A DNA stretch of 64,000 nucleotides from Escherichia phage KKP 3954: sequence record OR067838.1; one strand, given 5' to 3'. Position numbers and translations under genes: made by a program. The notes beneath the pieces are model-generated. The model ran no database searches and had not been told where the DNA came from. It saw nothing but the letters and a program-made list of their open reading frames with translations. Below, one piece after another: positions 1,225-21,973 of the stretch; within the stretch, counting starts at the first letter, position 1, and each line of letters starts with the position of its first letter.

Positions 1225-1466
1225 TAGTCATCCTCTTTGGTAGATTGTGATCTGCCCCAACGTAAATCAATAAGATTTTTCATGAGGCGAGAAGGGGTTA
1301 TCATGAAAACAAAAGCCCAACCCATCCATTCAGGAATTTCTTTTTCTATTCCTAAAAAGATAAACATGCCTGTCATAACCGACATGCCTACAGCGTTCCA
1401 GACTTTAGTAGAACTGACTTTATTATCAGGATATATACAGAACATACCTATTAAAAATTTTCTCAT
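1224..1466 (-). CDS. small membrane protein, possible holin-like
   Basis: 80 aa with two to three hydrophobic segments (VGMSVMTGMFIFLGI, MGWAFVFMI). Confidence 0.25.
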   Translation of the reverse strand: MRKFLIGMFCIYPDNKVSSTKVWNAVGMSVMTGMFIFLGIEKEIPEWMGWAFVFMITPSRLMKNLIDLRWGRSQSTKEDD

Positions 1467-1768
1467 AGTGCGTTCTCATTACTTTTTAAATCACGAGATA
1501 CAGCTAATTCCCCAAGGTCTACAGAACCCGCTGAATGCACAAATACAGCAGCACTAAGACTAATGGCAGTAGTACCTGGGGCAATATCAGCAGGTAGGGA
1601 ATACGCCCTTTGCGTCTCCTTGTCATAGATAACCTTATACCCACCCAAATCCACACCAACTGAGAAATAAACAACTTCTGATTGCTTAACTCCGAAGTGA
1701 CGGGCTATAGCTTGCTTGTTAGTTTGTTTTGCTACCGAGCCTGTTGGCTGAGTAAACATTTCATTCAT
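1463..1768 (-). CDS. hypothetical protein
   Basis: 101-aa ORF, 4-nt overlap with downstream gene. Confidence 0.3.
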   Translation of the reverse strand: MNEMFTQPTGSVAKQTNKQAIARHFGVKQSEVVYFSVGVDLGGYKVIYDKETQRAYSLPADIAPGTTAISLSAAVFVHSAGSVDLGELAVSRDLKSNENAL

Positions 1769-1820: not shown

Positions 1821-4217
1821 TTAGTCGGTTATGCTTGATATCGCTGCATACTGGTTCACGGATACAGGAGTTGCGTCTATTCTAGTGTTTCTCGATGATG
1901 ACCTAACCATCAGAAACACCATAGCGCGTCCAGATCCGTCAACATACTTGAGTATCCCTGTTGTATTTGCGGATATTTGTTGTAGGAATATCTGTCCTTG
2001 CGTTGTCGATGTAATAACAGCCGGAGTAGACACCACGGCTGAACCGATTATAAATACACTTATTTTTCCGGATAATTGATACAAAAGCGCCGCAGTTCCA
2101 GAAAACGTACCGGATGCCAATGTAACATTTATATCCCCCGACAACCGGATATACGCGCTTGGTGATGCCGTTATTGTTACGGATGAAGCGTTTATACGAA
2201 ACCCTTTATAACTGGTTACGACTCTGGTAAGTGAGACAGACCCTGTTACATTTATAACGAAGTCGCCGCGAAAACCACCTTTTTGTCTAACGATGTTTAC
2301 AATTTCTATCGCCCGCTCCAGAGATGCTACAGCCCTACCAGAAACAAATCCGGAGTTCTCATCGTTACCAGTTGCAGGGTTAACAAAGATTTCTCTCGTG
2401 AAATCCATCCCTAAATAGTTTACAGCAGACCAGTTACCAATACTTCCATAATCAGTAATAGCAGGGCTTACATTCTCTACGCGCAATGGTGCATTAGTGA
2501 ATGTTCCACCAACCATCCCATTAGAGAACCCTCCGACTGGGGGCATACCACGAGCAATAACTTTACGCTCAGTACCATCTTGACCACAGAAGAAGAACCC
2601 ATAGGAAAGACAGGTATAGTTAATTTGCGACCAGTTATCCAAATCTATATAACTGTTAGCTATCACAAAATTGTGACGCATAATCATATTGCCGCCTACA
2701 TCTTCTACGTGCGGCTTTCGTAAGTGAATGTCTGTATCGTTAAATGCGAACGCCTGCCTCCACCATTCAACGACAGGTTCGTCGATAACAAAATCACGAA
2801 CTGTATCGCAAGTTATACCAGTATTCTGATTTTTTCCTTCAGCAGTCCATGCCGTTGCTGGATAGACTAATTCTGGATTGTCGGCGTTAGCACCAACTCG
2901 TGCAACATAAGGATTGGTTATACGTAGCCCGGCGTTTGCCTTATAAAGATGGATACCCTGACGCATAGCCAGCACTTTAGGGGAACGGAAATCAGCACCC
3001 CATGACCATCTAAAATACATTCCTAACATGGGTGCTGATACCAGATTACCGCCACGTTCTGTGATTCCTATACTGGTTTTTGTACCTTTACATCCAGGGG
3101 ACATTGAGAAGTTAAGACCTATCTTGACACCGCCAGAACATGCTACTGATAGGTCGAATAGGAATCCATCTGACATCGTGATATAACCGTTCACATCGGT
3201 AATATCGTTGTCAGGCGTGCCGATTAAAGCGCCAGTTTTCCTCACATAAGAAATACCTGACAACTCAAAAACAACTGGTTCTGTAGCAGCGGTGTTTAAA
3301 TCCGTCGGAGCATAATAAAAACCAACTGGTATTTGTCTGTTGAAATAGGTCTGCGCACCAACCTGATCGTAATGTACATGACGCATAAGCAGGAGCGGAA
3401 CAGCAGACTCTACACGAGAAGTAAACACCACATGAACTGGTTTAAGGCTATATTTATATGCCTCCAAAGCTGTAGCGTTGGCGTAAGATGATGCCATACC
3501 CGCTGTGATATAAGAGTTCAGAGCGTTGATTTTTTCTGTGCCTGTTCCGGCGAAATCATCAACGTAAAGCTCATTAATCAGTTTCGCATACAATCCATTC
3601 ACGATTGGCATCGGCGTGACTTCGGAAACAATCTCCCATCTGGATCCACCAGTTGACACTTTCTGACCCAGAATAAGAGTTGCATCAGCAGCCATAGCCT
3701 GGATATTACTAAAGCCGTGCACATAACGATCTCCACCCTCACTAGAGATGTTTTCTTTAAGAGATGCATCGCCAACACTAACCCACGCTCCTAATTTAAC
3801 CTCACCTGTGCTATCTGGAGTTGAACCAGTTGGAACTATTTTTGGTAGGTCACTATCCCAAGTGTAGCACTGACCACCTGCAATATACCAAACAGCATCA
3901 GTAGATGTGGATACAGTAGCCCCCTCTTCAAAACTACCATCAACAAGTGTTAACCCCGCTTCAGCAAGACTACGACGCCACTGTTCACGATCATTAAGAA
4001 GATTGTTATTCAACTCTTCCTGAACAGTATTACCATTTGAGGATTGTATTAAATCTGCTCCATCTGTATCTTTCAACTGGGTGGCTAAAACCACCCCAGT
4101 GTCAGTAAGAAAGTTGGAAACTGTGCTTTTAACAGTTTTATCAGGTTGATCTAAAACCAGGTAATCTGAACCATTAACTTTTGATGTTTCGGGTAAATTA
4201 GTAATTGTAGTTGACAT
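1821..4217 (-). CDS. tail spike / tail fibre protein
   Basis: 798 aa, Gly/Ser/Thr/Asn-rich repetitive composition typical of beta-helix tailspikes; position in tail module. Confidence 0.45.
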   Translation of the reverse strand: MSTTITNLPETSKVNGSDYLVLDQPDKTVKSTVSNFLTDTGVVLATQLKDTDGADLIQSSNGNTVQEELNNNLLNDREQWRRSLAEAGLTLVDGSFEEGATVSTSTDAVWYIAGGQCYTWDSDLPKIVPTGSTPDSTGEVKLGAWVSVGDASLKENISSEGGDRYVHGFSNIQAMAADATLILGQKVSTGGSRWEIVSEVTPMPIVNGLYAKLINELYVDDFAGTGTEKINALNSYITAGMASSYANATALEAYKYSLKPVHVVFTSRVESAVPLLLMRHVHYDQVGAQTYFNRQIPVGFYYAPTDLNTAATEPVVFELSGISYVRKTGALIGTPDNDITDVNGYITMSDGFLFDLSVACSGGVKIGLNFSMSPGCKGTKTSIGITERGGNLVSAPMLGMYFRWSWGADFRSPKVLAMRQGIHLYKANAGLRITNPYVARVGANADNPELVYPATAWTAEGKNQNTGITCDTVRDFVIDEPVVEWWRQAFAFNDTDIHLRKPHVEDVGGNMIMRHNFVIANSYIDLDNWSQINYTCLSYGFFFCGQDGTERKVIARGMPPVGGFSNGMVGGTFTNAPLRVENVSPAITDYGSIGNWSAVNYLGMDFTREIFVNPATGNDENSGFVSGRAVASLERAIEIVNIVRQKGGFRGDFVINVTGSVSLTRVVTSYKGFRINASSVTITASPSAYIRLSGDINVTLASGTFSGTAALLYQLSGKISVFIIGSAVVSTPAVITSTTQGQIFLQQISANTTGILKYVDGSGRAMVFLMVRSSSRNTRIDATPVSVNQYAAISSITD

Positions 4218-4225
4218 TTTTACTC

Positions 4226-6379
4226 CTATATATAAAATTTTTGTGTTGTTACTAAATCTTCTCCAGATTTAGTGGCTAATGTAATTCCACTTATGGTGGC
4301 AATCTCAACATTTACCTGTTTAAGAGTGATATCCTGTAAATAAACGTTCAAAGGCACGTTACCCATATAGAAAACTTGGGATTGAGAATTAACTACCGTG
4401 ATAGAATCATGCATTATTTGAGGATAGGCCCATATATATTGTGTAAGTCCGTCAAACTTATTGGCGTTCAACACTATGTTACCTATAATCATCTTCCAAA
4501 GATATGTGCGGTAGTTTGATTTAGGATCAAAGCCATACAAAGGTGCAAGAGTAGCATCTGGAACAAAACCTGAAAGGTAGTGAATATCAGAATATTCAAA
4601 ACCTAATTTTTCATGTGGTATAGTAATTGCATCAAATGCTTTCATCATCTTACCTTCCAGAAGCCAGTCATAACACTCTGAACAGTAAAAATCAAAAGCT
4701 TCAGGAATGTAGTAATCAGACGGGAAGTTAACTTTCTCCATCAAACCGTTGCCGATAATTGATGGCAAGAACGGAAGCAATGTTACCTTGGCTCCTGGGT
4801 AAGTTGCTCTAGTATCTGTTGCAAACTTTGTAACTCTTAATCCTAGTTTACGAGACAAAAATGCATAGTATTCGTCAAACGGCGTTCCTGTTTTATAATT
4901 ATCTATTGTTCCTGCATCTTGTGCAAATAAACCTGTTTCTGTGTTGAATGCCAGTTTGGTAGTGTAATCATATATGCAAGGCATTTTACTTGCTGTATTA
5001 TACCACCACCAAGGCTCACCAATTTGAATGACAACTGGAATATTATTAGCTTGCGAAATAGATGCTATTTTATTAATAACATTTTGCAAATATTCCATAC
5101 CTTCGTCAATAGTTGGAGACAATACGTAACTAGGAGGCTCATACCCTGTTGCTGCAAGAGCATCGTTCCAATCATGCTGGACCCATTCTACAGGACAAAC
5201 TGTGCTCATCAACTCAAAACTTAAAGAGTTCATTATTGTGTAACCCTTCTCGTTCGCTATAGCATGGAAACTATTTAGCCAAGCTTCTGTAGCGGGATTC
5301 AGGAAGACAGATCTATTTAAAGCCCAAGATGTTCCGTTCCATGAGAACTCATAATAGTGAGACATTCCATTGTAATGGTTAATCATTCCACGATAACCTA
5401 GCGCATATGTATTATAAATAACTCTCTCTGGAGTCAGGTTATACATATCATCATAAGATGTGCACATGCGAATATCATGTTCAGGCTGGACAAGGTTGCT
5501 GACTTTCATCATACTATAACCAGAAGTAGGTTCAAGAAGAGTGAAAGTAAACCAAGCCTCTTGACTGTCAATAGGTACAATCTCTTCTATTTCTTCATAC
5601 CTCGTTGTAATCAAAGAGAAGAAAATATCATCTACAGCACTCATATCCAAAGGAATATCATTATTAGGACCAGAGAAGATATTACCAAAATCTAATTTGA
5701 TTGTGGCTGTTTTACCATCTTCTGAAATATCTGAAGCGTAGAATCCTAAACTGACATAATGAACACTTTTATCCAAGAGAGTTACAGTCAAAGTCGGCAC
5801 CAAAGGTTCTTCTTTAAAACCTGGCATGTTTTGACTAATTTCCATTTTAAACCAAAGTTTCTCTGAACTTAAATCTGTGTGGGGTAAATACCCAACACCT
5901 TTATGGTCATATTTGTCAACTGTGCTCCAGATAACCCCTGCCAAACCTGCTGCTGTTCTGTTTACAAATCTTGCAGTAAAAGAGTCTCCATGAGATACAA
6001 TAGAACAACTTTCCGTTGCTTGAGAATCTATTGTCCAATACATAGGAGAGAACATTTTAACGTCTTTTGTAGTCCAAGTTATTGGAGTAGTATTTTCTTG
6101 GATCGTAGTTATAATACAATTGATGGTCGTTTCAACCATCATGTTATTTTGACTAATCCCTGAAACTTGGAGGGAGAAGTTAAGATCTATTGAGTTCTTT
6201 GGTCGTTCAAATACTTCAACCACAATGGTAGCAGAATCAGCATCATCAGGGAACACAAGTGTTCCCGATTTTGCAATATAATCTCTACCAGCGACTGCTG
6301 TTCCATCAACAGTCGTGTAGTTAAATGAACTCGCATTTACTCTCTTGTCTCGCGTGACAGTAAATATAGCTTGTTTCAT
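4226..6379 (-). CDS. tail fibre / receptor-binding protein
   Basis: 717-aa ORF adjacent to other tail fibre genes. Confidence 0.4.
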   Translation of the reverse strand: MKQAIFTVTRDKRVNASSFNYTTVDGTAVAGRDYIAKSGTLVFPDDADSATIVVEVFERPKNSIDLNFSLQVSGISQNNMMVETTINCIITTIQENTTPITWTTKDVKMFSPMYWTIDSQATESCSIVSHGDSFTARFVNRTAAGLAGVIWSTVDKYDHKGVGYLPHTDLSSEKLWFKMEISQNMPGFKEEPLVPTLTVTLLDKSVHYVSLGFYASDISEDGKTATIKLDFGNIFSGPNNDIPLDMSAVDDIFFSLITTRYEEIEEIVPIDSQEAWFTFTLLEPTSGYSMMKVSNLVQPEHDIRMCTSYDDMYNLTPERVIYNTYALGYRGMINHYNGMSHYYEFSWNGTSWALNRSVFLNPATEAWLNSFHAIANEKGYTIMNSLSFELMSTVCPVEWVQHDWNDALAATGYEPPSYVLSPTIDEGMEYLQNVINKIASISQANNIPVVIQIGEPWWWYNTASKMPCIYDYTTKLAFNTETGLFAQDAGTIDNYKTGTPFDEYYAFLSRKLGLRVTKFATDTRATYPGAKVTLLPFLPSIIGNGLMEKVNFPSDYYIPEAFDFYCSECYDWLLEGKMMKAFDAITIPHEKLGFEYSDIHYLSGFVPDATLAPLYGFDPKSNYRTYLWKMIIGNIVLNANKFDGLTQYIWAYPQIMHDSITVVNSQSQVFYMGNVPLNVYLQDITLKQVNVEIATISGITLATKSGEDLVTTQKFYI

Positions 6380-6387
6380 TTTACCCC

Positions 6388-7305
6388 TTACTCGGTAACG
6401 TCCACACTAATGTTTGCCATTGTCAAAACAGTAAGTGCAGGAATATTGCTCGAATCCAAAACAGGTAATGCATTTTGGGGATTAAGTTTTTTGTATAAAG
6501 CATACAACCCAAAACCACGTAACAACTCTCCAGCGTGGAAGCCAAAGAAGACTCCGTTATCACTATCTGGTCTAGGAGCGGAACTCCAACAGCCATTCAT
6601 AACATGATTAGGACCAAGAACAATATAATTTTCCTGAATAAGTTCAAAACAGCGGTCTGCTACTATTTTAATGTTAGGAATTTCTGAATCATACCCAGCC
6701 ATCCCCATTATAGCACATCCTGCCATAAAGAGCGCAGACATGTGACTTGTAAAGTCATCTACAGGTGCTGCCACTTCTCCGTTGGGATAAAATATTGTTG
6801 GTGTTCTTCCTTCGTTGTTGTCTTGGAACCACTTTAGATAGTTGATCCAGTTTTTACAAACTGTTAAAAGTTTTTCAGGAACTTCTGCCCCTCGTTGTTT
6901 CAGTTCGTATACTGTATGACACGCACAGAAGAATGCTCGTGCTTCATAACCATCCCAAGCTTTATCGTTCCAATGATACATTGTGAACTCATTCTTGTTT
7001 CCGTATTTATGAGCATCCCAACGATCCCAAACATAAGCTTGTGCCATTGGTCCAGGCATCACAGGGGCAAACTTATTATAAAACCACATTTGTGAATCAT
7101 ATAAAAAGTCTATACTGTTGTTCATACGAACCCAATCAATATCTCTCCCTTTAAAACAATATAAGGATGGGTATTGATAACCTGGGTAAGGAATACCACG
7201 CCAACCGTCATATAAGGCTGTGTTAGGATCACTGATATTGGAAAATGGAATGATTCCTGGAGTATAATTCAAACTGTTAAGTTTGTAGTCCAGTATTGTA
7301 TACAA
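6388..7305 (-). CDS. tail-associated protein, glycoside-hydrolase-like
   Basis: 305 aa, Trp/Tyr-rich, resembles alpha/alpha-barrel glycosidase fold by composition only. Confidence 0.3.
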   Translation of the reverse strand: MYTILDYKLNSLNYTPGIIPFSNISDPNTALYDGWRGIPYPGYQYPSLYCFKGRDIDWVRMNNSIDFLYDSQMWFYNKFAPVMPGPMAQAYVWDRWDAHKYGNKNEFTMYHWNDKAWDGYEARAFFCACHTVYELKQRGAEVPEKLLTVCKNWINYLKWFQDNNEGRTPTIFYPNGEVAAPVDDFTSHMSALFMAGCAIMGMAGYDSEIPNIKIVADRCFELIQENYIVLGPNHVMNGCWSSAPRPDSDNGVFFGFHAGELLRGFGLYALYKKLNPQNALPVLDSSNIPALTVLTMANISVDVTE

Positions 7306-9266
7306 TCTCCAAGTTTTGCTGTATAAGGATTTTCAGATGAAACTGTAACCCTGAAATACATTGTGTAATCATCACCAGTGGCTGAAGAATACAAAGATGG
7401 TATATCGTTAACGCAATAAAAATCGATTGCCCCTGTCAAGCCATTTGCAGGTTCAGAATCCAATGCAATATTGATCTGATCAACAGCAGTCAGGTTTATT
7501 GACGAAGGTTTTGCCTCTGTGTCTTCGTGATTAGGTTGCCAAGTACTTAATTTGAAATCGGCAGGACTTAAAGCTTTAGTAACCCATGCAGAATTTGTTT
7601 TTTCTAACATGGCCCACCATCTCCAACCTGCGGAATCCGTAATAGTGATGTTAAAATCATCTGCGTATGAACGATACGTAATAGATTTTAAATTGGCTGT
7701 TTTAGTTGGTGTTAACCAAAACCCAACAGTAAAACCACCATCTGAATCCATATTAGCAGAAACTATCTGATCACTATTTGTCCCAGCAATACCAGTTGCA
7801 TATTTATATTGTATCACAGTATTGCTTCCCCAGTCAACAATGATTCTAGGTTCAGCAATAATATATACACCACCCCCAGGAGGTTCGGTGCGCATAAAAC
7901 TGGATAGAGGTATATCCATCTTAGTCATATTAGCTGCACCAAGAGGTAAGCCACAACGATATGTCACTGTATCTGTTTCACTCTTAGTCTTGCTTAATTC
8001 TAACTCTGGACGGAAAAGAACACCTTCCCCTGCATCATCTACACCTTGAAACTCAATACGCAGTTTTGAATTCTGATCCACTCTGAACCAAACTGCCTGT
8101 TGTTCTAGAGTTGTTTGTGCTGCAACATCTTGGCGAATTACTGTGTATCCTAACTCGTCACGAGAATATTTAGGTATTGCTGTAGATGGGTATGAGTAAT
8201 CATACGAGATACCGTCTGTAAAAGGAATTATTGCTGTAGTAGATCTACGGAAGAATTTATCAAACATATCAATGTTTGAGTAGTCTTGGCACAGCAATAA
8301 AGAAGATTGCCAGCAAAGCCAGTATTTTCTCTCTCCTGTGATCTGATACATCAGGTAGTTTGCATCACACCACCACGTTTCAGCATCGGAAGCATTATCT
8401 TGATAACCTAACTCTACCGGAACGTTTACAGGACGGTTATGCCACATCTCATTACGCTTAAGCAGATATCCACCGTGTTCTACAGGGTTGCATGTAGCGT
8501 AGTTGAATTTATAGTCACCGTTCACAGAAGCATTTTTAAGCTGCACTGTTCCATATTCTGCGAAGCTGTGACCTGTAGATAAAATGTTACCATCCCAATC
8601 AACTTTACGTCCTAGACGATCTATAATCCATTCAACGTCCCACTGATCTCCATATTCTTTCCAGTTGGTTGAACCATCTGGGTTAATTGCATAAACTGTT
8701 GCGTTAACGGAGTTCCAACCAAGATTACCATTGAAAGCAAACCAAGCTTTATCTAAGTATTCCCCCCAATGCGGTGCACCTTTAGGAATAACAGTCCTTC
8801 CGTTAATCCAAGTCATCATGCTACCTTTGAACCCGCCGTGCGTAGGATACCCATCATCTGTGAGAGGGTAATGTGCTAAACGTGGTTCTTTACCATTGAT
8901 GATCCAGTTGGGACGATATTTAGCTGGAGGATCAGGAATAGGTTGGCCCCCGAAGAAGTGATCTATATAAGCTTGCCAATACTTTTCGGCAGATTCAAGA
9001 TATTTTTTATCCCCTGTAGCCAAATATGCATAAGCAAAACCAGTGATAAGCACAGATTGACCTTCGGTAGTAGCGTCACCGTTTGGTTGCCCTTCCTGCG
9101 CTGTCCAGTTAATAAAGTGTCTGTTGTTCGCCAATACGTTTTGTGGGTTGATAATGTAGTGCTGAACCGTAGGATCTATGGTAAGCCCAGTATTTCTTTC
9201 CAAAAACTGAACCAACCCTTCAATCAACTGAAACGTGTTGTCAATATTGTGCTTAACTCTTGACAT
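7269..9266 (-). CDS. tail protein with putative polysaccharide-degrading domain
   Basis: 665 aa; segment GFAYAYLATGDKKYLESAEKYWQAYIDHF recalls alpha/alpha-toroid glycoside hydrolases; aromatic-rich. Confidence 0.35.
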   Translation of the reverse strand: MSRVKHNIDNTFQLIEGLVQFLERNTGLTIDPTVQHYIINPQNVLANNRHFINWTAQEGQPNGDATTEGQSVLITGFAYAYLATGDKKYLESAEKYWQAYIDHFFGGQPIPDPPAKYRPNWIINGKEPRLAHYPLTDDGYPTHGGFKGSMMTWINGRTVIPKGAPHWGEYLDKAWFAFNGNLGWNSVNATVYAINPDGSTNWKEYGDQWDVEWIIDRLGRKVDWDGNILSTGHSFAEYGTVQLKNASVNGDYKFNYATCNPVEHGGYLLKRNEMWHNRPVNVPVELGYQDNASDAETWWCDANYLMYQITGERKYWLCWQSSLLLCQDYSNIDMFDKFFRRSTTAIIPFTDGISYDYSYPSTAIPKYSRDELGYTVIRQDVAAQTTLEQQAVWFRVDQNSKLRIEFQGVDDAGEGVLFRPELELSKTKSETDTVTYRCGLPLGAANMTKMDIPLSSFMRTEPPGGGVYIIAEPRIIVDWGSNTVIQYKYATGIAGTNSDQIVSANMDSDGGFTVGFWLTPTKTANLKSITYRSYADDFNITITDSAGWRWWAMLEKTNSAWVTKALSPADFKLSTWQPNHEDTEAKPSSINLTAVDQINIALDSEPANGLTGAIDFYCVNDIPSLYSSATGDDYTMYFRVTVSSENPYTAKLGDCIQYWTTNLTV

Positions 9267-9739
9267 TAAATAACTCCTGCTAAAACTAAGCTACCTGTCC
9301 AAGTTGCACCATTATCATAACTGATAAACTCAAAAGTGTCTGTTGCACCTTGACGATAACTCAAAACTGGGGAACGACCAAAACTCCATTTTACAGAAGA
9401 AGGCCATACGACTTTATTTGCACCACTTCCTTGACGCAAAGATAAAGTAAAGTTTAAAACTGCATTCGTTGCTACTGGAATATTAGTAAAACTAATTGTG
9501 CACGTTGCAGAAGATAAGGTTGCCGAAAAATATTCTGCTGAACTAATATCTAATGCCAAGGTGCTAGTTACTGTTCCCCGTGCATTTAAACGGTTTCTAG
9601 TTACCCCTGCACCACTCAATAGCACTTTCAAAGAAGTCTTCTTTGTTATTCCAGCCTGATCTGTTACAAAGAAATCTGTATCAGATACAGAGGTTGTTTG
9701 TGTAAGATCAGAAACTTTGATCGTAGTTAAATCTGCCAT
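9266..9739 (-). CDS. baseplate/tail protein
   Basis: 157-aa ORF translationally coupled to gp25-like gene. Confidence 0.3.
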   Translation of the reverse strand: MADLTTIKVSDLTQTTSVSDTDFFVTDQAGITKKTSLKVLLSGAGVTRNRLNARGTVTSTLALDISSAEYFSATLSSATCTISFTNIPVATNAVLNFTLSLRQGSGANKVVWPSSVKWSFGRSPVLSYRQGATDTFEFISYDNGATWTGSLVLAGVI

Positions 9740-10365
9740 TATTCTTCTACTCCTGTCATAGCTGTTATACCGAAATTATTGTTTGTAGCTAATGCATCAC
9801 CTTTTTCGTTAACCATGATTCTTTCCCCTGCTGACTCTGTAGACCATTCATTCCACCAAGTAGAGTAGGTATCACGTGGCAAACCAACAAAGTTGATAAA
9901 GCGATAAAGTCTATTCGAATTCTCAACAATACTGTAAGCTTCACAAATGATCGCTGCATTGTCTTCACCAGCTTCAGGGTAAATAAACTCTTCAGAAGGT
10001 TGAGTATTGAATATAGATGTTACTGTATCTGCTCCAACTGTGACCATAACTGTCATTGAGTAATAACGTTGATCCATGTCATAAGCAGATTTATAACTGT
10101 TTATTGTATCTATGTAAACGTTTTTGGCAATCTCTGCTAAAAATATTCTGTCTACAATATCTTTCTTTCTGGCAACACCAATAATCTCTTGTAAGTAAGG
10201 AACACCGAAGTTAGTATTTAAAAACCACTCTCCACGATACGTGTTCAGAGTTATCCCAAGAGTTTGTGCTGCAATTTCTGTTCTGGTTGTGGTGAGGACC
10301 AAATCCCCATCATCCATGATGAGGTCGTTGTTTGGTCCAAGCTTTAAGTCAAAAGGGATTCCCAT
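9739..10365 (-). CDS. baseplate wedge protein, gp25/GPW-like
   Basis: N-term DLKLGPNNDLIMDDGDLVLTTTRTEIAAQTLGITLNTYRGEWFLNTNFGVPY matches the GPW/gp25 family pattern. Confidence 0.55.
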   Translation of the reverse strand: MGIPFDLKLGPNNDLIMDDGDLVLTTTRTEIAAQTLGITLNTYRGEWFLNTNFGVPYLQEIIGVARKKDIVDRIFLAEIAKNVYIDTINSYKSAYDMDQRYYSMTVMVTVGADTVTSIFNTQPSEEFIYPEAGEDNAAIICEAYSIVENSNRLYRFINFVGLPRDTYSTWWNEWSTESAGERIMVNEKGDALATNNNFGITAMTGVEE

Positions 10366-10366
10366 G

Positions 10367-11101
10367 TTAGGCTCCTGTTGGTTTTAAGGACTCGGCACTT
10401 GAGCTACCGCTCTGAATGTTACGAACCGTGTGCGTGTGAGTATGGAATCCGATGCCATTACCATCTGTCATCAAACCGTTCTGATCTATTTTAAGACCAT
10501 TAATATCTGCTACGCCGCCTTTGAAAGTTAAATTACCACCTTTTAGATCCAAAGTCCCTGTGCCATCTGTAATAGTAATACCAGAGGTAGTAATATCTAT
10601 TCTCATCCCTTGACTATTCCATATTGAAATATTACCTGTAGGGTCGAAAGAAGCGTATGTGTTTTTGTTATTAGAAATAACTACCTTTTCAGAATCTACG
10701 GCTTCTGTTGAATCTGTTCCTGTAGCTATTTTGGGAATAAAACAAATAGGGTATAATCCACAAGGCTGCATAAAAGTGGATGACGAAGAGGTTTCCCCAC
10801 TAGTTTGCAGTGCATTAGAAGGATCTCTTTCAGAAAATATAACAGTTCCTAAATCGCCAGCTTTAATAGGGAATGAGATTCTTCCTGTCCCACCACCATT
10901 AACCATAAAAGGAACGTCTTCAAAAGTAGGATAATCTATTTCATCTTCACTAGATCGTGTGTTTTTAACAATAGACTCTAAAGTGACAGTTTTAGCACCA
11001 TAATTAACGCCAGTCACACGGACTGGCAAGGCTGTATGGACTTCTGCTAATTGTTCTGTCATTAAGCCACGCATTGCTGTGACAAAATTCAATGCATCCA
11101 T
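10367..11101 (-). CDS. baseplate central spike (gpV/gp5-like)
   Basis: C-terminal beta-helix-like G/T repeats and HTHTH metal-binding-like tip motif. Confidence 0.5.
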   Translation of the reverse strand: MDALNFVTAMRGLMTEQLAEVHTALPVRVTGVNYGAKTVTLESIVKNTRSSEDEIDYPTFEDVPFMVNGGGTGRISFPIKAGDLGTVIFSERDPSNALQTSGETSSSSTFMQPCGLYPICFIPKIATGTDSTEAVDSEKVVISNNKNTYASFDPTGNISIWNSQGMRIDITTSGITITDGTGTLDLKGGNLTFKGGVADINGLKIDQNGLMTDGNGIGFHTHTHTVRNIQSGSSSAESLKPTGA

Positions 11102-12111
11102 TATTTCTCCTTAGTCATTATTTCAGACACGGATACACACTCCACTTCAGTAACCCACTCTTTACCCTCTTTATCACCATTGTGAGAAACAGAAACAACT
11201 TTAAATGGACCATCATAATCTCGGCTTTTTAACCAGATTGTTTTTTCTGGTAAAATTGCACCGTTCATTTGGCATTTAAATTTAACACCATCTGTAGGTT
11301 TCTTTGCCTTCTTAGAGGACTTGGTAACTTTTTTAGTAGGTTTAATATCGTTGTGGAATGGTTCTGGACTTCCTATCAGACCAGTTTCAGGGCTAATATA
11401 GGCGCTACGTGCACTAGACATTTGTGAACGAGGAGTGACATAAACAGATCCATCTTGTATTGACACATTGTGATCAATACTTTTACAAATATGTTCTAGG
11501 TAATGTGAAGTGTTTCCACACATAGCTGTTGCTGAAGATAAGGTTTGATCATTATCTACGTGTATATTACCTTCTGTAGTTCCTAAATCCTTTACCAAAT
11601 CTGTAACAACACGTTTGATTTTAGTTCCTTTTGGATAACTGCGGCTTGTTCTTGCTTCTGCAATGTTAATACCGCCATCCAAACAGTGTAAAGTGGTTTT
11701 CCTGTCTACCGAGTCAAAAGTATCACTAACCCACTGGATAGTTCCTTTGAAGACCATAACCAACTCTTCACCTTCGTATCCTACCGCTAAAGCAACAGCC
11801 AAGTTATTTCGGATACCACGGTTTATATAGTTAACAGTATCATCCGAAAGGTTATAAACTACAATCTCTGCTTGGTTAGGATCTTTGTTATTATCTTTCT
11901 TAATGCTGAAGGTTATTTGATGGTCTTGCAACAAATACAAATTAGAAGAGGATTTTTCTGTTGTCCCTAACTTGGTATCCAAATCTACCGTAGATTTAAA
12001 TGCCGAGTTCTTAGTTCTCTTCTGTATTGTGTTTGTGGCAGAACCAATTAATAATTTGTATGCCCTGTTTAAATTAGGGGCAGGAGCTTTTGTATACTCT
12101 CTTTCTGCCAT
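11101..12111 (-). CDS. baseplate hub protein (gpD/XkdQ-like)
   Basis: 336 aa, position between TMP-proximal genes and spike. Confidence 0.4.
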   Translation of the reverse strand: MAEREYTKAPAPNLNRAYKLLIGSATNTIQKRTKNSAFKSTVDLDTKLGTTEKSSSNLYLLQDHQITFSIKKDNNKDPNQAEIVVYNLSDDTVNYINRGIRNNLAVALAVGYEGEELVMVFKGTIQWVSDTFDSVDRKTTLHCLDGGINIAEARTSRSYPKGTKIKRVVTDLVKDLGTTEGNIHVDNDQTLSSATAMCGNTSHYLEHICKSIDHNVSIQDGSVYVTPRSQMSSARSAYISPETGLIGSPEPFHNDIKPTKKVTKSSKKAKKPTDGVKFKCQMNGAILPEKTIWLKSRDYDGPFKVVSVSHNGDKEGKEWVTEVECVSVSEIMTKEK

Positions 12112-12120
12112 ATTATCTCC

Positions 12121-12399
12121 TTACGCCTGATTAGGTTTGTTATCAATATAAACCAATACAAAACGTTTATCTCGACCTGTAGTTGTATACCCAGGACGAC
12201 CATTAATCTTAACTGTATCTACTATATACAATTGACCATCTGGCACACTTTCAAGATATTTATAAGGTTTAAGAAGATCTAAACCATTTGTAACTTTGAA
12301 ACTTATACTTGGATCATCTCCAGATAATCCTATCTGACATTGCCAAGACTCGTCCCTAGTGTTCCACCTTAAACGAATGTCATAATCAACTCCATCCAA
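12121..12399 (-). CDS. small tail/baseplate protein; N-terminus probably extends to ATG near 12449
   Basis: Track start is TTG; adding one A to the A4 run upstream gives MVSEKLKSIPDQTYTVTLDGVDYD in frame from ATG at about 12449..12447. Confidence 0.3.
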   Translation of the reverse strand: MDGVDYDIRLRWNTRDESWQCQIGLSGDDPSISFKVTNGLDLLKPYKYLESVPDGQLYIVDTVKINGRPGYTTTGRDKRFVLVYIDNKPNQA

Positions 12400-12537
12400 T
12401 GTAACTGTATATGTTTGATCAGGTATACTCTTCAGTTTTCAGATACCATGCAAAATAAGTAGAATGGTCCTCCAGATAAACTGCACTGTAGCCTGTATTA
12501 CTTGTAGACCTTGTTGTTTTAGAATAAGTTGTCACTA

Positions 12538-13239
12538 TTAACCTCCGTTGTTTGTTGGGGTATTAGTAGCTTCAGCAGTTCTTACTGTAATATCTGACTT
12601 AGGACCATTCGAAGCAACTTGACCTTTCACATCACCACCAGTTGACTTATTTGGTGCTGTTTTTACAGCAATAGCGTTAGTAGTGGCCTTAGAAACGAGA
12701 CGGATTTGTTCAAACTCTAAATCAAATTGCATAGCAAATTCAGATTTATAATCATACGAATAACCTTTGAGGATAACATTTTCAAAAGTTCTGTGTTCTG
12801 TCAAAAGAACTATTGGTTGTCTTGCCTCAAATATTTGGTCTAGATATTCTATTGCTTGAGAAATCCTTGCTCCATTTACACCTGCACTGTATAATTGATC
12901 TCGCATAAGCCGAATTGGTGTTTCGGTAATTATACCTGAAAGTTTAAATCTGTTGTTTTTTATTTGAACGTGGTCACTTACATCCGATCCTGATTCTACT
13001 GGAAAACTTGTAACATCTGCCTCACGAGTTACACCTACTTCAGGGACCGAATCGAAAGTAATTGCTTTAAAGTTTTGAATGTATTGATCACTTGAACTAT
13101 TATAAACACTTGCTAAAATGCAGAAACCATTATCACCCTTTACAGTAGATGCCGAGGTATTTTTATTCTCGGTAGAGTTGATTTCCTGTTCTGCCTTATA
13201 GACGGCTCTCACCGACTGTTGTGGAGTCATTGCTGCCAT
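12538..13239 (-). CDS. tail protein of unknown function
   Basis: 233-aa ORF between tape measure and baseplate genes. Confidence 0.3.
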   Translation of the reverse strand: MAAMTPQQSVRAVYKAEQEINSTENKNTSASTVKGDNGFCILASVYNSSSDQYIQNFKAITFDSVPEVGVTREADVTSFPVESGSDVSDHVQIKNNRFKLSGIITETPIRLMRDQLYSAGVNGARISQAIEYLDQIFEARQPIVLLTEHRTFENVILKGYSYDYKSEFAMQFDLEFEQIRLVSKATTNAIAVKTAPNKSTGGDVKGQVASNGPKSDITVRTAEATNTPTNNGG

Positions 13240-13365
13240 GATAACCTCGTAGTAATGATAATGCCAAAAGGAAGATGCAAGATCTTCCCATATTGATTAT
13301 TGTAACACATATAGAAACTTCGTGTCAAGGAAAACGAAAATACCCCGCCGAAGCGAGGTATTTTA

Positions 13366-14985
13366 TTAACCACCAGTGTTAGATTGTCCACTTAGAGTTG
13401 AAAGAGACAAACGTTGGAAAATACTATTTCCGCTATTTTGAATTCTTGCATCAAGAATATTTCCAAACTCGGAAGAAGGGCTGATCGTAACTTTGATAAG
13501 ATCACTTGGTATTGCTACCGTATTCTCAACAACAGGTTGATTACGAGCCAAACTTACGTTAGGTGTATAGGCTGATTCACGTAAATCTTCAAGAGGATTA
13601 CCAAATCCAAAAGCACGTGTCCTTGTTTGTTCTCCTCTCCACATACGACCAATATCTTGTGTATCAATACCTGTTAAATTATACAACCAATCTGCTACAG
13701 GATTGCTGTCTCCACTTTGCGTTGCCTCGTATGCTTTTTGTGCCAAAGATTTATTAGGATCTGTGTTGTCTCCGAAGGTATCTGGGAATGTTTCTTTAAG
13801 CCAATTGGTAAAAGATCCGAAACCATCTCCTAATTCTTTAGCAAAACCACCAAGTTGAACTGTTGTTTTACCAAGTTCTTCACCTAAATCTTTGGCGAAC
13901 TGATCTAGCACTTTAACGTTATCCAACCAAGAATCATCTTTAGGTAAAGCTTTTACAAAACCTTCTAAGAAATGGTTCTGCATACCTTGACCTACAAGCT
14001 GAACTGTTGCAGCAAAACGAGTAAACTCTTTAGAAGCATCTATTTGTTCTTGAGTTAATGTTGCACCTGTTCTTTGAAGCATTTTCAATACTTCATTATA
14101 CCCTTCGCCGTTTTTACTAAACATACGTTGGTAGTGCATAAGGTCATCACCAAGGTTTTCAAGAAGTCGCCCGATTTGAGCGGAGTTCATACCTCGACGC
14201 TCACCTTCATTAACAGTAGCCTGAATAAAAGCTAAAGGATCGTTCTGTAAAGGTTTAAGCTGTTCTGGATTCCATCCAAACAAGTTCATAATGTCAGTTA
14301 TGCCATTATCACCGCCTTTCCACTTCCCTTCTTTCTCATTCCACTTTGCAGCTAAAACTGTATTACCAAGACGTTCACGAACGTCTTTAATATTATCTAT
14401 TGATTTAATAATATTTGCAGAGTCTACACCGTTCTGTTCACCCCAAGCTGTCATTGCCAAAATAGCGTTGGCGTTTGTCTGAACGTTTTCAGCACCACGG
14501 CTTACAAGTTTAATTCTTTCGTTAGTATTCATCAACGTGTTACCAACTACAGAACCACCTGCAAACAGCCCAGCACCTATTAAAGAGGATGCAATCATGC
14601 GTGGATTAAGACCTGCCGCACCTTCTTTTAATTGTCCATATCGACGATCACGATCACGTTTTTGTTGAGCTAATTCACGCTTACGGTTGCGTTCTATATC
14701 TCTAAGTTCACGATTTCGCATACGTATACGCATTTTAGCTTCTGCTTCTAACTCTCTACGAATACGGCGACGACCGCGAACCTCGTCTTCTATTTCAGCA
14801 TTCTTTTCACGATGCGATCTGCGTAAAGCATCCAACTGGTGAGCAAGAGCTTGGTTCATACGTTGAAGAGTTATTTCACCCTTTTTGTATTGCTCTACAG
14901 CTTTACCCATAACATCTCTAGCTTCTTGCATAGCGCCAGGACTGGCTTTACTAAATGCTCTTGCTCTGTAGTTAAAGTTCTGCAA
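13366..14985 (-). CDS. tail tape measure protein, main part
   Basis: 539 aa, Arg/Glu-rich coiled-coil N-region then Gly-rich hydrophobic segment; follows tail chaperones. Confidence 0.5.
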   Translation of the reverse strand: MQNFNYRARAFSKASPGAMQEARDVMGKAVEQYKKGEITLQRMNQALAHQLDALRRSHREKNAEIEDEVRGRRRIRRELEAEAKMRIRMRNRELRDIERNRKRELAQQKRDRDRRYGQLKEGAAGLNPRMIASSLIGAGLFAGGSVVGNTLMNTNERIKLVSRGAENVQTNANAILAMTAWGEQNGVDSANIIKSIDNIKDVRERLGNTVLAAKWNEKEGKWKGGDNGITDIMNLFGWNPEQLKPLQNDPLAFIQATVNEGERRGMNSAQIGRLLENLGDDLMHYQRMFSKNGEGYNEVLKMLQRTGATLTQEQIDASKEFTRFAATVQLVGQGMQNHFLEGFVKALPKDDSWLDNVKVLDQFAKDLGEELGKTTVQLGGFAKELGDGFGSFTNWLKETFPDTFGDNTDPNKSLAQKAYEATQSGDSNPVADWLYNLTGIDTQDIGRMWRGEQTRTRAFGFGNPLEDLRESAYTPNVSLARNQPVVENTVAIPSDLIKVTISPSSEFGNILDARIQNSGNSIFQRLSLSTLSGQSNTGG

Positions 14986-15043
14986 ACGAAGATTACCTAA
15001 GTCTTCCCTACGTGCTGCTGCTTTAGCTTCGCGTTCAGCAGCT

Positions 15044-15355
15044 TTACGAGCTTTTTTCTTCTTCTCTTCCTTGCGGGGTTTTAGGAGTTCTAGGTCTGCC
15101 AGATCCGCCTACAGGAGCACCCGCTCCAGCGGGAGTAGGTGCTCGCATAGGTTTTTGACTTTGAGTTTGAGCTTTCTTAAGTTCACGCTCAATCTCTTTC
15201 ATTTGTTGTCTAAACTTGGTCATGTTCATAGTGGGTTGCATTTTATTTGCAAACTTCTGAACACTCAACACGGCATCTTTTGCTTCCTTGAGACTGTTCT
15301 TGTCCACCTTAAACGTAACCACGTTACTAATTTTGGAGGCGTTAATTTCTAACAA
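15044..15355 (-). CDS. tape measure protein N-terminal segment, separated by apparent frameshift
   Basis: Frame stays open from 15099 into the 13366..14985 ORF; deleting one A of the A6 run at 15047-15052 fuses them. Confidence 0.4.
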   Translation of the reverse strand: MLEINASKISNVVTFKVDKNSLKEAKDAVLSVQKFANKMQPTMNMTKFRQQMKEIERELKKAQTQSQKPMRAPTPAGAGAPVGGSGRPRTPKTPQGREEEKSS

Positions 15356-15375
15356 AGTATGTTCCTCGTGTTGGA

Positions 15376-15714
15376 TTAAACAAGTTTCTTAAACAAATCT
15401 GACATTTTATTTGTCTGGTTTTGATGTTTTCTCTTTATTGAAGTGTCTTTAACATACATGGCTTCAACATACTCTTCGTATGTTAAATACTCATATAGTT
15501 TTAAAAGATAATCTACACCGTAGTTATCCAATGTTTTCAGTGTTTCCGAGGTATCTTTAACGACTTTGCAAAGAATAACCTCATACCACTTCAAAGTAAG
15601 GGTTTTCGTTGCTGTGTCGATAGCATGTTCAATCGCAGGTGTTAATTTGCTGCTAAACTCGTCATCGCCTGAAGCTGTGTGAACAGTTTTCCGAAACCTC
15701 GTTTGAAAAAAGGG
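15376..15714 (-). CDS. tail assembly chaperone frameshift extension (gpGT-like)
   Basis: The -1 frame is open from the slippery site into ORF 15376..15594. Confidence 0.45.
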   Translation of the reverse strand, partial: PFFQTRFRKTVHTASGDDEFSSKLTPAIEHAIDTATKTLTLKWYEVILCKVVKDTSETLKTLDNYGVDYLLKLYEYLTYEEYVEAMYVKDTSIKRKHQNQTNKMSDLFKKLV

Positions 15715-16124
15715 CCGTAGTTTACCTCCAGAACTTTAGCAGTAAGATCTAACACTAGTTCTGGGTGAGCCATAAATAATTCATCAAAATTTTCTGCAAC
15801 GTTATAACCGTCTTGAGTATAAACCTCATCTAAAATTTTACGCAAAAAGACAGTTAAATTCTTTTCTTCCAAACCTGCAAAAAGTTGGATCAGTGCCATA
15901 GCAATACGTGACTCAAGGTCTTCGTCTGCGGACATTGTTGCTGTGCTATACATAGTCATAGGAACAACCAGAACACTACCCAATTCTGGAATCCTGTCAA
16001 ACACTTTAGATGGACTCCACTTCATAATACGGAAAGTAACAGATCTGTTTCCATCTAACGGAATCTCAACTACTTCTTCTGGTCGAGCATATTTTTGAAT
16101 TGTGTTATCTTGTTCTTGTGACAT
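15642..16124 (-). CDS. tail assembly chaperone (gpG-like)
   Basis: 160 aa between tube and tape measure; contains slippery heptamer near 3' end. Confidence 0.5.
   Translation of the reverse strand: MSQEQDNTIQKYARPEEVVEIPLDGNRSVTFRIMKWSPSKVFDRIPELGSVLVVPMTMYSTATMSADEDLESRIAMALIQLFAGLEEKNLTVFLRKILDEVYTQDGYNVAENFDELFMAHPELVLDLTAKVLEVNYGPFFKRGFGKLFTQLQAMTSLAAN
15708..15714 (-). promoter_or_regulatory. -1 ribosomal frameshift slippery heptamer C_CCU_UUU
   Basis: Minus-strand GGC CCT TTT TTC; X_XXY_YYZ in the zero frame of the chaperone gene. Confidence 0.5.
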
Positions 16125-16169
16125 ATTTTCCTCTCTAATGATAAAAAGGGCATTTCTGCCCTTTATTTA

Positions 16170-16649
16170 TTATTGAATTGTCAGAGCAGAGATTGAGTTA
16201 AGGGTGCTCAAACCTACACCAACTTCATTACGCAGAAGGCTTGCATCTTTAAGACCAATAACCCATTGGTTCTCTGTAATCATTTCGCCAATAGTATCTT
16301 CAGGCTGACTTTGAATCCATCCAATCGTGCTAATGTAATAGCCACGTGGGTCTTCCAAGTAAACACTGAATGCTACTTGACGAGTAGAATACATTGTTTG
16401 TGCATATGTTGCAAGTACTTCGTTAGCTGGAGATGTGCGTTGCAAAGACATTGTGAGTGTTCCCAAACGGTTACGACTCAAAGCTAGTGAAACGTCGCCA
16501 TCAGTCCCTGAATAAGGGTTGATAATATCGTTAGATTTAGCAATAACGATTTTAGTATCAGCCGCAAAACCCCACGGTTCCCAACCACCTAATGAAAGGA
16601 TAACTTGAGATGGGTCGTAGGCCATTACGCCAGTAAGCATTTTATCCAT
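16170..16649 (-). CDS. tail tube protein
   Basis: 159 aa directly downstream of sheath. Confidence 0.5.
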   Translation of the reverse strand: MDKMLTGVMAYDPSQVILSLGGWEPWGFAADTKIVIAKSNDIINPYSGTDGDVSLALSRNRLGTLTMSLQRTSPANEVLATYAQTMYSTRQVAFSVYLEDPRGYYISTIGWIQSQPEDTIGEMITENQWVIGLKDASLLRNEVGVGLSTLNSISALTIQ

Positions 16650-16661: not shown

Positions 16662-17783
16662 TTATTTTGATAACGGGGGGCTTAACCCCCGCCGTATTAG
16701 TTTGCAAGTACGGTTAGTCAGGACGTTGACCTGAACTTTAACGTAATGGAAGAAGCCAGCGTAAACATATTCAATCTTCATCCCATCAACCAGACGAGCA
16801 TTGATTTGCGCATCGGTCATATCGGCACGAGAAGGAATATAAACAATAGGTTTCAGATCGACACGCAAACCAGTCTCTTCAGAAGTAACAACTTCATTAG
16901 CGATGGAACCGTTGAGGATACCTACTTGGATCGGGTTAGCCAGAACAGCTTGTCGAATCAAAGCCAGACCGTTTGAAGTAGCACGAACACCACCACCCAG
17001 CATAGACTGTTGTTTAAACAGTGTAAACAGTGATTCTTCTGTGCGAGCTTTAAACCACAAAGCATGAACAACATAGTCAACAAAGAAACCGCTAACCATC
17101 AATCCATCACGATAGAACAGAGTTCCATGCTCTTTACGATAGATGTTACCGTTCTGTTGAACAATATTGTTTTCCGAAGTCTGATCCAGTTTCTCGATCT
17201 CTACTCCTACCAGTGTTTTACCGTGAAGGGTAGTTAAACCAGGTTGACGAGAACAGATTGCACCAACAACTGCTGCTTCTGGGAATACAGAATCTGCATC
17301 AGTCATCCACAAAGCAAAGCAAGTGTTATTATAACCGAGGTCATTCAGTCGTTCCAGAACGTTATCTTCTGCTTTCGTTTTAATTCCAGGTTCAGAGCTA
17401 GAGAAGAAGTAAACTTTATCATTCTCTTCTACCCATGCAGCCAAAGCTAGAACATCTTCTGTTTCATGGGAATCTGAAAGGGTCCAGAACCAGCTACTAT
17501 CAATATCATGCAGAGCAGCGATATCTTCCGTAATAGCATTAGCATAGACAGTTTCTTGAGTGAAACCTGTGCTGTCAATAGAACCAAACTTACCTTCTAC
17601 TGGAGTGAAAGTCATTGCAGCGCCGTTGTTAGCTACTGTAAACAGTGGGCCATAAACAAGATCTGCATTGATCATTTCAGTCAGACCAACTACAATCTCT
17701 TGTGCAGTTGCAGTGTCATCAGCAATGAATTTAAATTCTTTTTTCTTGGGTACCATTTTTGATGGTAATTGTGTAAGTTGCAC
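16662..17783 (-). CDS. tail sheath protein, C-terminal part
   Basis: 373 aa; overlaps upstream fragment in another frame at an A6/T6 run. Confidence 0.5.
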   Translation of the reverse strand: MQLTQLPSKMVPKKKEFKFIADDTATAQEIVVGLTEMINADLVYGPLFTVANNGAAMTFTPVEGKFGSIDSTGFTQETVYANAITEDIAALHDIDSSWFWTLSDSHETEDVLALAAWVEENDKVYFFSSSEPGIKTKAEDNVLERLNDLGYNNTCFALWMTDADSVFPEAAVVGAICSRQPGLTTLHGKTLVGVEIEKLDQTSENNIVQQNGNIYRKEHGTLFYRDGLMVSGFFVDYVVHALWFKARTEESLFTLFKQQSMLGGGVRATSNGLALIRQAVLANPIQVGILNGSIANEVVTSEETGLRVDLKPIVYIPSRADMTDAQINARLVDGMKIEYVYAGFFHYVKVQVNVLTNRTCKLIRRGLSPPLSK

Positions 17784-21697: not shown

Positions 21698-21973
21698 TTA
21701 AGAAGTGAAAACGACTTTTTCGGTCAGTTTCAGATCATGTGTTTCCAGTGCTGCTACGCCAGCGTCATCTACCAGGGAGCCATCTTTGTAGTATACTGCA
21801 AAGCGGTTCAGAGTAAGATCACGTACGCCAACAACTGCGGTGAAAGTGTCACCTACTGCTACATCATCAATACCGAACAGAGCATCAGTCCAAATCAGAA
21901 CTTTAGCAGCATCGGCAGCTTCAGCTTTAGCAGCTTCAGTGTTGTCAGCTTTCAGGATAGAACCAATTTTCAT
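21698..21973 (-). CDS. small head protein (decoration-like)
   Basis: 91 aa between scaffold and capsid. Confidence 0.3.
   Translation of the reverse strand: MKIGSILKADNTEAAKAEAADAAKVLIWTDALFGIDDVAVGDTFTAVVGVRDLTLNRFAVYYKDGSLVDDAGVAALETHDLKLTEKVVFTS

Follow-up and report, generated by a model that had tools for sequence, protein, structure and literature searches.

A probable glycan-engaging tail module in Escherichia phage KKP 3954, with a mosaic tailspike and a conserved tail gene interrupted in the sequence record

Escherichia phage KKP 3954 (sequence record OR067838.1) carries, near the start of the 64,000-nucleotide stretch analysed here (the window), a block of tail genes that we read, with a probability of about 0.75, as the glycan-engaging tail part of a phAPEC8-like myovirus. 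The block consists of three genes, coding for conserved proteins of 958 and 717 amino acids (aa) and for a tailspike of 798 aa. An earlier annotation made from the letters alone (the sequence-only reading) had described four consecutive large tail proteins. The four open reading frames (ORFs) are present as listed and all lie on the minus strand, but the 305-aa ORF (6388-7305) and the 665-aa ORF (7269-9266) belong to a single gene. The corresponding products in the record are WLW41413.1 (798 aa), WLW41414 (717 aa) and WLW41416 (665 aa). The stretch belongs to the genus Phapecoctavirus (phAPEC8-like, Stephanstirmvirinae), and its first 12.2 kb have approximately 97% DNA identity to genomes of this genus, with 17% uncovered. 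Taken as a whole, the locus is an ordinary module for glycan recognition in a phage genus that is already known, with some useful by-products. The coordinates of all features are given in Table 1.

The 665-aa and 305-aa ORFs are two pieces of one gene. They overlap by 37 nucleotides (nt) and match the profile phrog_2871 in succession, at positions 113-772 and 772-1071, respectively, and the relatives have one coding sequence (CDS) of 2877 nt, encoding 958 aa, at the same place. According to the alignment, the sequence TTGTACAAT of the relatives reads TTGTATACAAT in KKP 3954, which differs by two extra bases. Removal of this TA in silico yields a single 958-aa ORF again. The insertion was found in none of 60 related phage records, and of the 533 phage records with a homologue, 520 give an uninterrupted match. 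Once repaired, the protein shows 8 differences in 958 residues from the intact representative of its cluster (P0001), and none of the 102 positions invariant in the family is changed. As every invariant residue is retained, an old pseudogene was rejected. The start assigned to the 305-aa ORF is a mechanical TTG, and none of the in-frame starts of this ORF has a usable Shine-Dalgarno spacing.

The 798-aa protein had been taken for a beta-helix tailspike by the sequence-only reading, and this identification holds. In addition to its Tail_spike_N domain, residues 285-788 align to residues 257-760 of the solved tailspike TSP1 of phage CBA120 (ORF210, PDB 4oj5; phmmer, E=2e-37), and the proposed catalytic cluster is conserved at five of five positions (W406, Y437, E484, H503 and E505, corresponding to W380, Y411, E456, H481 and E483 of TSP1). 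The two spikes are homologous in Tail_spike_N, the beta-helix, the C-terminal region and the catalytic cluster, whereas the N-terminal anchor and the baseplate are different and the module is only about 26% identical to the Kuttervirus TSP1 proteins. TSP1 recognises the Salmonella O:21 antigen (PMC8432352), a substrate that cannot be transferred to the KKP 3954 spike at this level of identity.

The genus-conserved anchor of the spike ends at residue 157, beyond which no similarity to the spike of the Phapecoctavirus SKA64 was found. The nearest known module is that of the Gamaleyavirus VTCCBPA_322 (G7C-like, N4 family), whose gp66-position spike (XFC51913.1) is 79% identical over residues 153-797. 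The Gamaleyavirus protein, however, has 1029 aa, belongs to a podovirus and possesses its own N-terminal branching or anchor region. At the 90% cluster level the KKP 3954 tailspike is a singleton. The local GC content of the module is 44%, compared to approximately 38% elsewhere, and 4 of the 30 remaining GTAC sites of the window, at 2107-3374, fall within the receptor-binding segment of about 2 kb, i.e. ~1.9 per kb compared to ~0.4 elsewhere; both features fit a recent foreign origin. Judged from these sequence features, the beta-helix module appears to have been acquired horizontally, and the spike to be a new combination of a known kind, in which the genus anchor is joined to a foreign TSP1-type module. 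For Kuttervirus, Gamaleyavirus, Justusliebigvirus and others, an exchange of receptor-binding modules has been described (PMC10408124). The N-terminus of the tailspike also resembles that of the small 157-aa fibre protein encoded at the beginning of the fibre block, and phrog_7760 matches both. These two proteins may dock to the same sort of baseplate site.

Among the three proteins, the clearest enzyme-like fold is that predicted for the 717-aa protein, which the sequence-only reading had not singled out when it called two proteins, of 665 and 305 aa, hydrolase-like. It carries three Pfam domains (Table 1). The AlphaFold2 (AF2) model is of excellent quality (pLDDT 91, pTM 0.87), and Foldseek relates it to gp64 of phage N4 (TMt 0.62, root-mean-square deviation 3.0). 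The best compact matches outside phages are the C-terminal domain of E. coli PgaB (4p7q, TMt 0.63; 4p7l, TMt 0.61; probability 1.0) and Cwp19 of C. difficile (TMt 0.55), and many TIM-barrel glycosidases of families GH31, GH36 and GH2 are also listed. The similarity to the PgaB C-terminal domain and to Cwp19 is one of fold, with 10-12% sequence identity and no membership at the level of hidden Markov models (HMMs); no catalytic-family match of the GH153 or PgaB C-terminal type was found in Pfam or NCBIfam. A label 'poly-GlcNAc deacetylase' has been published (PMC8594841). In the model, however, the likeness is to the C-terminal TIM barrel of PgaB and not to its deacetylase (CE4) domain, because the isolated C-terminal domain alone reproduces the match. 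The acidic residues D310, D311, E389, E455, D563 and E568 are invariant in the family. E455 immediately follows a beta-strand, in the motif QIGEPWWW, and E568 sits where a strand ends; GEPWWW is common to the 717-aa protein and N4 gp64.

In relatives this protein is annotated as a 'non-contractile tail sheath', a label that derives from N4 gp65 (PMC9230969, PMC13434306). The gene content indicates that this name misdescribes its role, because the phage is a myovirus with a real contractile sheath gene, annotated as such in a relative at the equivalent of window ~16.7-18.1 kb. The N4 gp64 homologue has been treated as a conserved component of lateral fibres in wecB-dependent phages (PMC8594841, PMC8669472). 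Comparison with the gp65/gp64 heterodimer of N4 (PDB 9lc0, 9yf4) showed that residues 43-416 of gp65 share the NCTSP_N beta-sandwich and the beginning of the barrel with the 717-aa protein, and that residues 107-410 of gp64 share the rest of the barrel, including GEPWWW. In N4 (10758-16192) the TIM-barrel_NCTSP model is divided over two chains, with positions 4-46 in gp65 (residues 374-416) and positions 60-347 in gp64 (residues 109-407), whereas positions 1-346 lie in one chain in the 717-aa protein. The latter differs further by an added Calx-beta domain and by the absence of the gp65 domains that follow residue ~416, among them the ones binding the tail plug. Since one barrel model is divided between gp65 and gp64, the N4 heterodimer may be held together by the split barrel. 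The N4 structure paper mentions neither a TIM barrel, nor a split barrel, nor an enzymatic role for gp64 or gp65 (PMC13434306).

The name 'TfpL, long tail fibre', under which the 958-aa protein appears in the literature, comes solely from automated annotation (PMC12695924). The sequence-only reading had noted the aromatic-rich composition of its two fragments, which was borne out. Tryptophan accounts for 3.8% of the 665-aa ORF and 3.3% of the 305-aa ORF, compared to 1.5 +/- 1.0% in the 48 window ORFs of at least 150 aa, and tryptophan, tyrosine and phenylalanine together account for 13.2% and 15.7%, respectively, compared to 10.1 +/- 2.5%; the 717-aa protein also reaches 13.2%. The family comprises more than 300 protein clusters and is found in 533 phage records. 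Members with 43-55% identity occur in prophages and phages of Enterobacter, Pseudomonas, Stenotrophomonas and marine bacteria, and others in phi92-like phages (83%), rV5-like phages (35%), 52-kb Salmonella myoviruses, Felix-O1-like phages, jumbo phages and Vibrio phages. In a P2/HP1-like Pseudomonas prophage the gene directly follows Baseplate_J and Tail_P2_I and precedes a classical fibre. In a metagenomic SU10-like podovirus (6691-11364) it is part of a 1557-aa fusion with NCTSP_N and TIM-barrel domains, whose gene comes next after that of the head-tail adaptor. PF21722 is present in other members of about 1600 aa, and PF09684 in one. Because these placements differ, between a fibre position in the prophage and an NCTSP fusion in the podovirus, the 958-aa protein appears to be a portable peripheral tail module and not a host-range cassette. 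An obligate pairing of the 958-aa and 717-aa genes was considered and rejected, as the Pseudomonas prophage has the former without an NCTSP neighbour.

A model of the intact 958-aa form was obtained with AF2 (pLDDT 86, pTM 0.80). It contains 11 long helices, at residues 3-104, 293-329 and 711-927, with beta-rich domains between them, and these helices are divided between the 665-aa and 305-aa fragments. The beta-domains match carbohydrate-binding modules (CBMs) of families CBM11 (Foldseek probability 1.0, TMt 0.55) and CBM22, and the CBM-like region 346-653 is the least conserved of the family. Invariant polar and aromatic residues cluster in the helical segments, in the first beta-domain and in the linker 661-700. 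They include N47, N48, R49, H50, D64 and Y81 in the N-terminal segment and W746, R748, D750, Y754, W765, W770, Y773, R776, W806, W893 and E913 in the C-terminal one; the invariant acidic residues of the whole protein are D64, D294, E296, D336, D750 and E913.

The longer Foldseek alignments of the 958-aa model are with enzymes that combine a beta-sandwich with an (alpha/alpha)6-barrel, namely GH116, GH78 rhamnosidase, glucuronyl C5-epimerase (probability 0.97) and a viral GH65 domain. These matches have probabilities of 0.5-0.97, yet TM-scores below 0.2. Whole-chain TM-scores are low because the architecture is multi-domain and discontinuous, and the viral library gave mostly unnamed homologues. 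Sub-threshold HMM matches were obtained in the family for GH76 (E=0.0016, in 1 of 38 members, profile positions 78-106), C5-epim_C (0.021) and GH127 (0.087), three families that we take to belong to the six-hairpin clan. P0001 itself has no match to a six-hairpin family, and the 958-aa protein gave nothing above threshold in Pfam or NCBIfam and reached no six-hairpin cut-off. Searches of solved structures yielded no match with the single sequence and one insignificant match with a profile. Compared to six-hairpin enzymes (GH76, GH116, GH78, GH127, GH65 and C5-epimerase), the protein shares helix-rich termini and accessory beta-sandwich domains, whereas its helices are discontinuous, with ~190 and ~370 residues of beta-domains inserted. 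The alpha/alpha-barrel that had been seen in the 665-aa and 305-aa ORFs is therefore plausible at the level of the fold, given the 11 helices, compared to about 12 in a closed barrel of the clan, and the convergent weak matches, although no threshold was reached and the two ORFs are one gene; any catalysis is putative. Structure prediction, the check that had been suggested, gave enzyme-like folds for the 717-aa TIM barrel and, plausibly, for the 958-aa barrel.

After the gene for the RmlB-type dehydratase was found to be split as well, the whole window was compared with a 98%-identical relative. Twenty indels that are not multiples of three were found, whereas two other relatives show none between them over 13 kb. 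About half of the indels are changes in homopolymer length. GTAC is the site or the direct neighbour of nine of the 21 distinct indels, and two of these nine break the tail sheath, by +1 insertions directly beside GTAC (373 + 113 aa, compared to 457 in the relative). The tape measure (539 + 103 aa, compared to 624) and the exonuclease subunit of the DNA polymerase are broken by homopolymer indels. Besides the one in the 958-aa gene, GTATAC or indel sites of the record include those at 15052, 16706, 17748, 22004, 43435 and 52245. A myovirus with a broken sheath and a broken tape measure is not viable, and the public record must therefore contain frame-breaking sequence errors. GTAC is also lost selectively: 29 of the 51 sites of the relative are altered, compared to a median of 7% for other 4-mers and 21% for the next-highest, whereas in the reverse direction only 2 of 22 window sites differ. 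This effect was not seen between two other relatives. Most of the changes are G>A (ATAC or GTAT), while GTAC>GTATAC occurs three times and GTAC>GAATAC once; coding substitutions at GTAC comprise 10 synonymous and 7 non-synonymous changes. Examples of altered sites are those at 7298, 12423, 22003, 46226, 52244, 16706, 17748 and 31920-32172. The last of these lies between genes, at the point where transcription changes from leftward to rightward, and here the relative has a dense cluster of GTAC repeats (~8-10 sites in 250 nt), nearly all changed in the window. Either systematic base-calling errors at a modified GTAC motif or a real purge of restriction sites might account for these anomalies.

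That the split of the 958-aa gene is an artefact of the record appears very probable, because the same record has broken essential genes. If the frameshift were real, KKP 3954 would be a natural knock-out or truncation in which only the 665-aa N-terminal fragment is made, and the insertion could be the scar of restriction at G^TAC, as fill-in and ligation would then give exactly GTATAC; a DNA ligase is encoded by the phage group. Consistent with such an event, the TA insertion is no homopolymer slip, the same change is present at 22004 and 52245 in perhaps dispensable genes (head decoration and RmlB), the loss of GTAC is strong and one-directional, and the 10:7 ratio of coding substitutions suggests real selection against GTAC. 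However, insertions adjacent to GTAC also break the essential sheath, so that GTAC-associated indels in this record can be artefacts, and homopolymer indels break the tape measure and the exonuclease subunit. Both the absence of the insertion from all 60 relatives and the otherwise pristine state of the gene also argue against a real event, which we regard as improbable. The 37-nt overlap of the two ORFs might instead suggest a programmed ribosomal frameshift with two products, but it is the insertion that produces this overlap, and all relatives lack it and encode one continuous ORF. The arrangement is thus not conserved, and a +1 or -2 shift would be required, with no slippery site evident. 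Comparison with the relatives effectively refutes this explanation, to which we give practically no chance.

In our reading of the block as a glycan-engaging module, the tailspike would bind a strain-specific O-antigen or exopolysaccharide and cleave it with the pair Glu484/Glu505, located where the subunits meet, and would in this way set the strain range. The 958-aa and 717-aa proteins would bind, and possibly process, a conserved envelope glycan, for which the published candidate in this phage group is of the enterobacterial common antigen/N4 glycan receptor (ECA/NGR) type and wecB-dependent; the literature on wecB dependence concerns related phages and is indirect (PMC8594841, PMC8669472). 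In the 958-aa protein, the helical segments at the two ends would probably come together as an (alpha/alpha)-barrel, into which a conserved beta-domain and CBM-like beta-sandwiches are inserted, and the 717-aa protein would be the single-chain counterpart of the pair formed by the N-terminal part of gp65 and gp64 in N4. The suggestion of several depolymerase-like fibres is then only partly sustained: the tailspike is a classical variable depolymerase spike, whereas the other two proteins are deeply conserved across phage groups. Several points weigh against our reading. While the gene identities, homologies, folds, mosaic junction and insertion are shown, we infer the catalysis, the substrates and the virion position of the three proteins. 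The barrel of the 958-aa protein is assigned from sub-threshold HMMs (E = 0.0016 to 0.09) and low-TM whole-chain matches, PgaB-like TIM barrels can serve solely as binding domains, and the Glu-Glu site of CBA120 TSP1 is itself a structural proposal and not a mutational proof. Moreover, as the substitutions at GTAC sites lean synonymous, part of the GTAC-associated change is real evolution, which gives the TA insertion, too, a slight chance of being real.

The tailspike might, alternatively, be the sole enzyme, the enzyme-like folds of the 958-aa and 717-aa proteins being non-catalytic glycan-binding or structural modules at the baseplate periphery. No catalytic-family HMM reaches threshold for either protein, N4 gp64 and gp65 are described solely as sheath and receptor-binding proteins (PMC13434306), and the 43-55% identity of the 958-aa family across Pseudomonas, Enterobacter and marine hosts fits a structural constraint as well as a shared substrate. 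On the other hand, both families keep the invariant acidic and aromatic residues listed above, which are typical of sugar-binding or catalytic pockets, and GEPWWW is retained in N4 gp64. We place this alternative somewhat below even odds. The opposite proposal, that both proteins are carbohydrate-active enzymes carried on the virion, one with a discontinuous six-hairpin barrel and the other with a PgaB-C-like TIM barrel, and jointly process a conserved envelope glycan of the ECA/NGR type, is rather unlikely. If true, it would define a primary-receptor machinery shared by phAPEC8-, phi92-, rV5- and N4-like phages, with the same TIM barrel split between gp65 and gp64 in N4.

Table 1. Positions in the window of the tail genes, their domains, the insertion and the genes broken in the record
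Feature	Position	Strand	Basis
Mosaic tailspike gene, 798 aa	1821-4217	-	ORF; Tail_spike_N; many PHROG tailspike families
Tailspike residues 1-157, genus-conserved N-terminal anchor	3747-4217	-	87% identical to SKA64 spike
Tail_spike_N (PF18668), tailspike residues 93-150	3768-3941	-	E=2.1e-14, 53.8 bits (cut-off 25)
Tailspike residues 153-797, exchanged receptor-binding module, TSP1-type beta-helix	1827-3761	-	Homology to Gamaleyavirus spike and 4oj5
Conserved tail protein, 717 aa ('non-contractile tail sheath' in relatives)	4226-6379	-	Pfam, AF2
Calx-beta domain of 717-aa protein	6134-6370	-	PF03160, 7e-11
NCTSP_N beta-sandwich of 717-aa protein	5504-6061	-	PF23844, 5e-16, 58.8 bits (cut-off 27)
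TIM barrel (TIM-barrel_NCTSP) of 717-aa protein	4406-5485	-	PF23845, 3e-79, 267 bits (cut-off 27), model 1-346/348
Gene for 958-aa conserved tail protein ('TfpL'), appearing as 665-aa and 305-aa ORFs	6388-9266	-	Single CDS in relatives
958-aa residues 1-115, N-terminal helical segment (helices 3-24, 67-84, 87-104)	8922-9266	-	AF2 model; weak GH76 match (profile positions 78-106)
958-aa residues 346-653, CBM-like beta-sandwich region	7308-8231	-	Foldseek
958-aa residues 701-930, C-terminal helical segment, six long helices, wholly within 305-aa fragment	6475-7164	-	AF2
Gene-splitting 2-nt TA insertion (7301-7302), GTATAC for GTAC of relatives	7298-7303	.	Alignment
Small tail-fibre protein 'TfpS3', 157 aa, first gene of fibre block	9266-9739	-	phrog_9017 tail fiber, E=1.4e-68
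Stand-alone tailspike anchor (TD1-like) ORF, 101 aa, just downstream of tailspike	1463-1768	-	phrog_18484 positions 1-95, E=5e-40
Tape measure, split/truncated by 1-2-nt indels	13366-15355		Versus close relatives
Tail sheath, split/truncated by 1-2-nt indels	16662-18072		Versus close relatives
Head decoration protein, split/truncated by 1-2-nt indels	21698-21973		Versus close relatives
DNA polymerase exonuclease subunit, split/truncated by 1-2-nt indels	42809-43769		Versus close relatives
Hypothetical gene, split/truncated by 1-2-nt indels	45876-46876		Versus close relatives
RmlB-type dehydratase, split/truncated by 1-2-nt indels	51864-52858		Versus close relatives

The spike module was not seen in other Phapecoctavirus genomes and probably sets the strain range of this isolate, which makes it useful for host-range prediction and spike engineering. 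The two conserved proteins are widespread, but the 958-aa family, with its more than 500 phage records, and the 717-aa protein are annotated just as 'tail fibre' and 'non-contractile sheath'. Their enzyme-like sugar-handling folds lead to testable hypotheses on the recognition of conserved glycans by broad-host-range 'Swiss-army-knife' phages, with a practical value that is modest. Two by-products are worth keeping. One is the set of GTAC anomalies, as the frame-breaking errors of the public KKP 3954 record are concentrated at GTAC, which matters for users of its gene calls; the other is the splitting between N4 gp65 and gp64 of a barrel that is one chain here.

The order of transcription is tape measure, tube initiator, hub, gp138-like central spike and wedge protein, followed by the 157-aa fibre protein, the 958-aa protein, the 717-aa protein and the tailspike, and then by the 101-aa ORF, an 80-aa ORF and a Baseplate-J-like wedge gene that runs off the start of the window. 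The fibre and spike genes, which had been said to follow the baseplate, are actually enclosed by baseplate genes, with those for the hub, central spike and wedge (9739-12111) on one side and the Baseplate-J-like gene on the other. Gene order is identical, with ~97% DNA identity, in the tail-fibre loci of the Phapecoctavirus phages SKA64, ZCKP1 and Ro121c4YLVW, and also in the phi92-like Justusliebigvirus. This identity covers the hub, central spike, wedge, 157-aa fibre, 958-aa and 717-aa genes, the spike anchor, the 101-aa ORF and Baseplate-J; the 958-aa and 717-aa proteins are 99% and 98% identical to those of the Phapecoctavirus relatives. In contrast, the receptor-binding module of the tailspike (residues ~153-797) is unrelated to theirs, and the interruption of the 958-aa gene is peculiar to the KKP 3954 record. 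The 157-aa fibre protein owes its name TfpS3 to a published annotation (PMC12695924).

The 101-aa ORF matches the first ~95 positions of many tailspike PHROGs and consists solely of an anchor domain. It ends soon after the motif GTTAISL, which is near-identical to GTTAVSL, the proposed recombination site in the TD1 domains of Kuttervirus spikes (PMC8432352). The ORF is kept as a small gene in relatives and, from its sequence, could be either a small adaptor or what is left of a second spike gene.

A link between depolymerases and the rhamnose pathway had also been proposed, and is unsupported. Genes of the RmlB, RmlA, RmlC and RmlD types are found at 51864-55144 on the plus strand, ~45 kb away from the tail genes, on the opposite strand and in a different transcription block. 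They lie in a nucleotide-metabolism block, between the ribonucleotide reductase genes and those for glutaredoxin and lysozyme, and have been called a putative dTDP-sugar glycosylation machinery (PMC8594841). In a relative, a cluster of ten tRNA genes is annotated in the region equivalent to window ~29000-31300.

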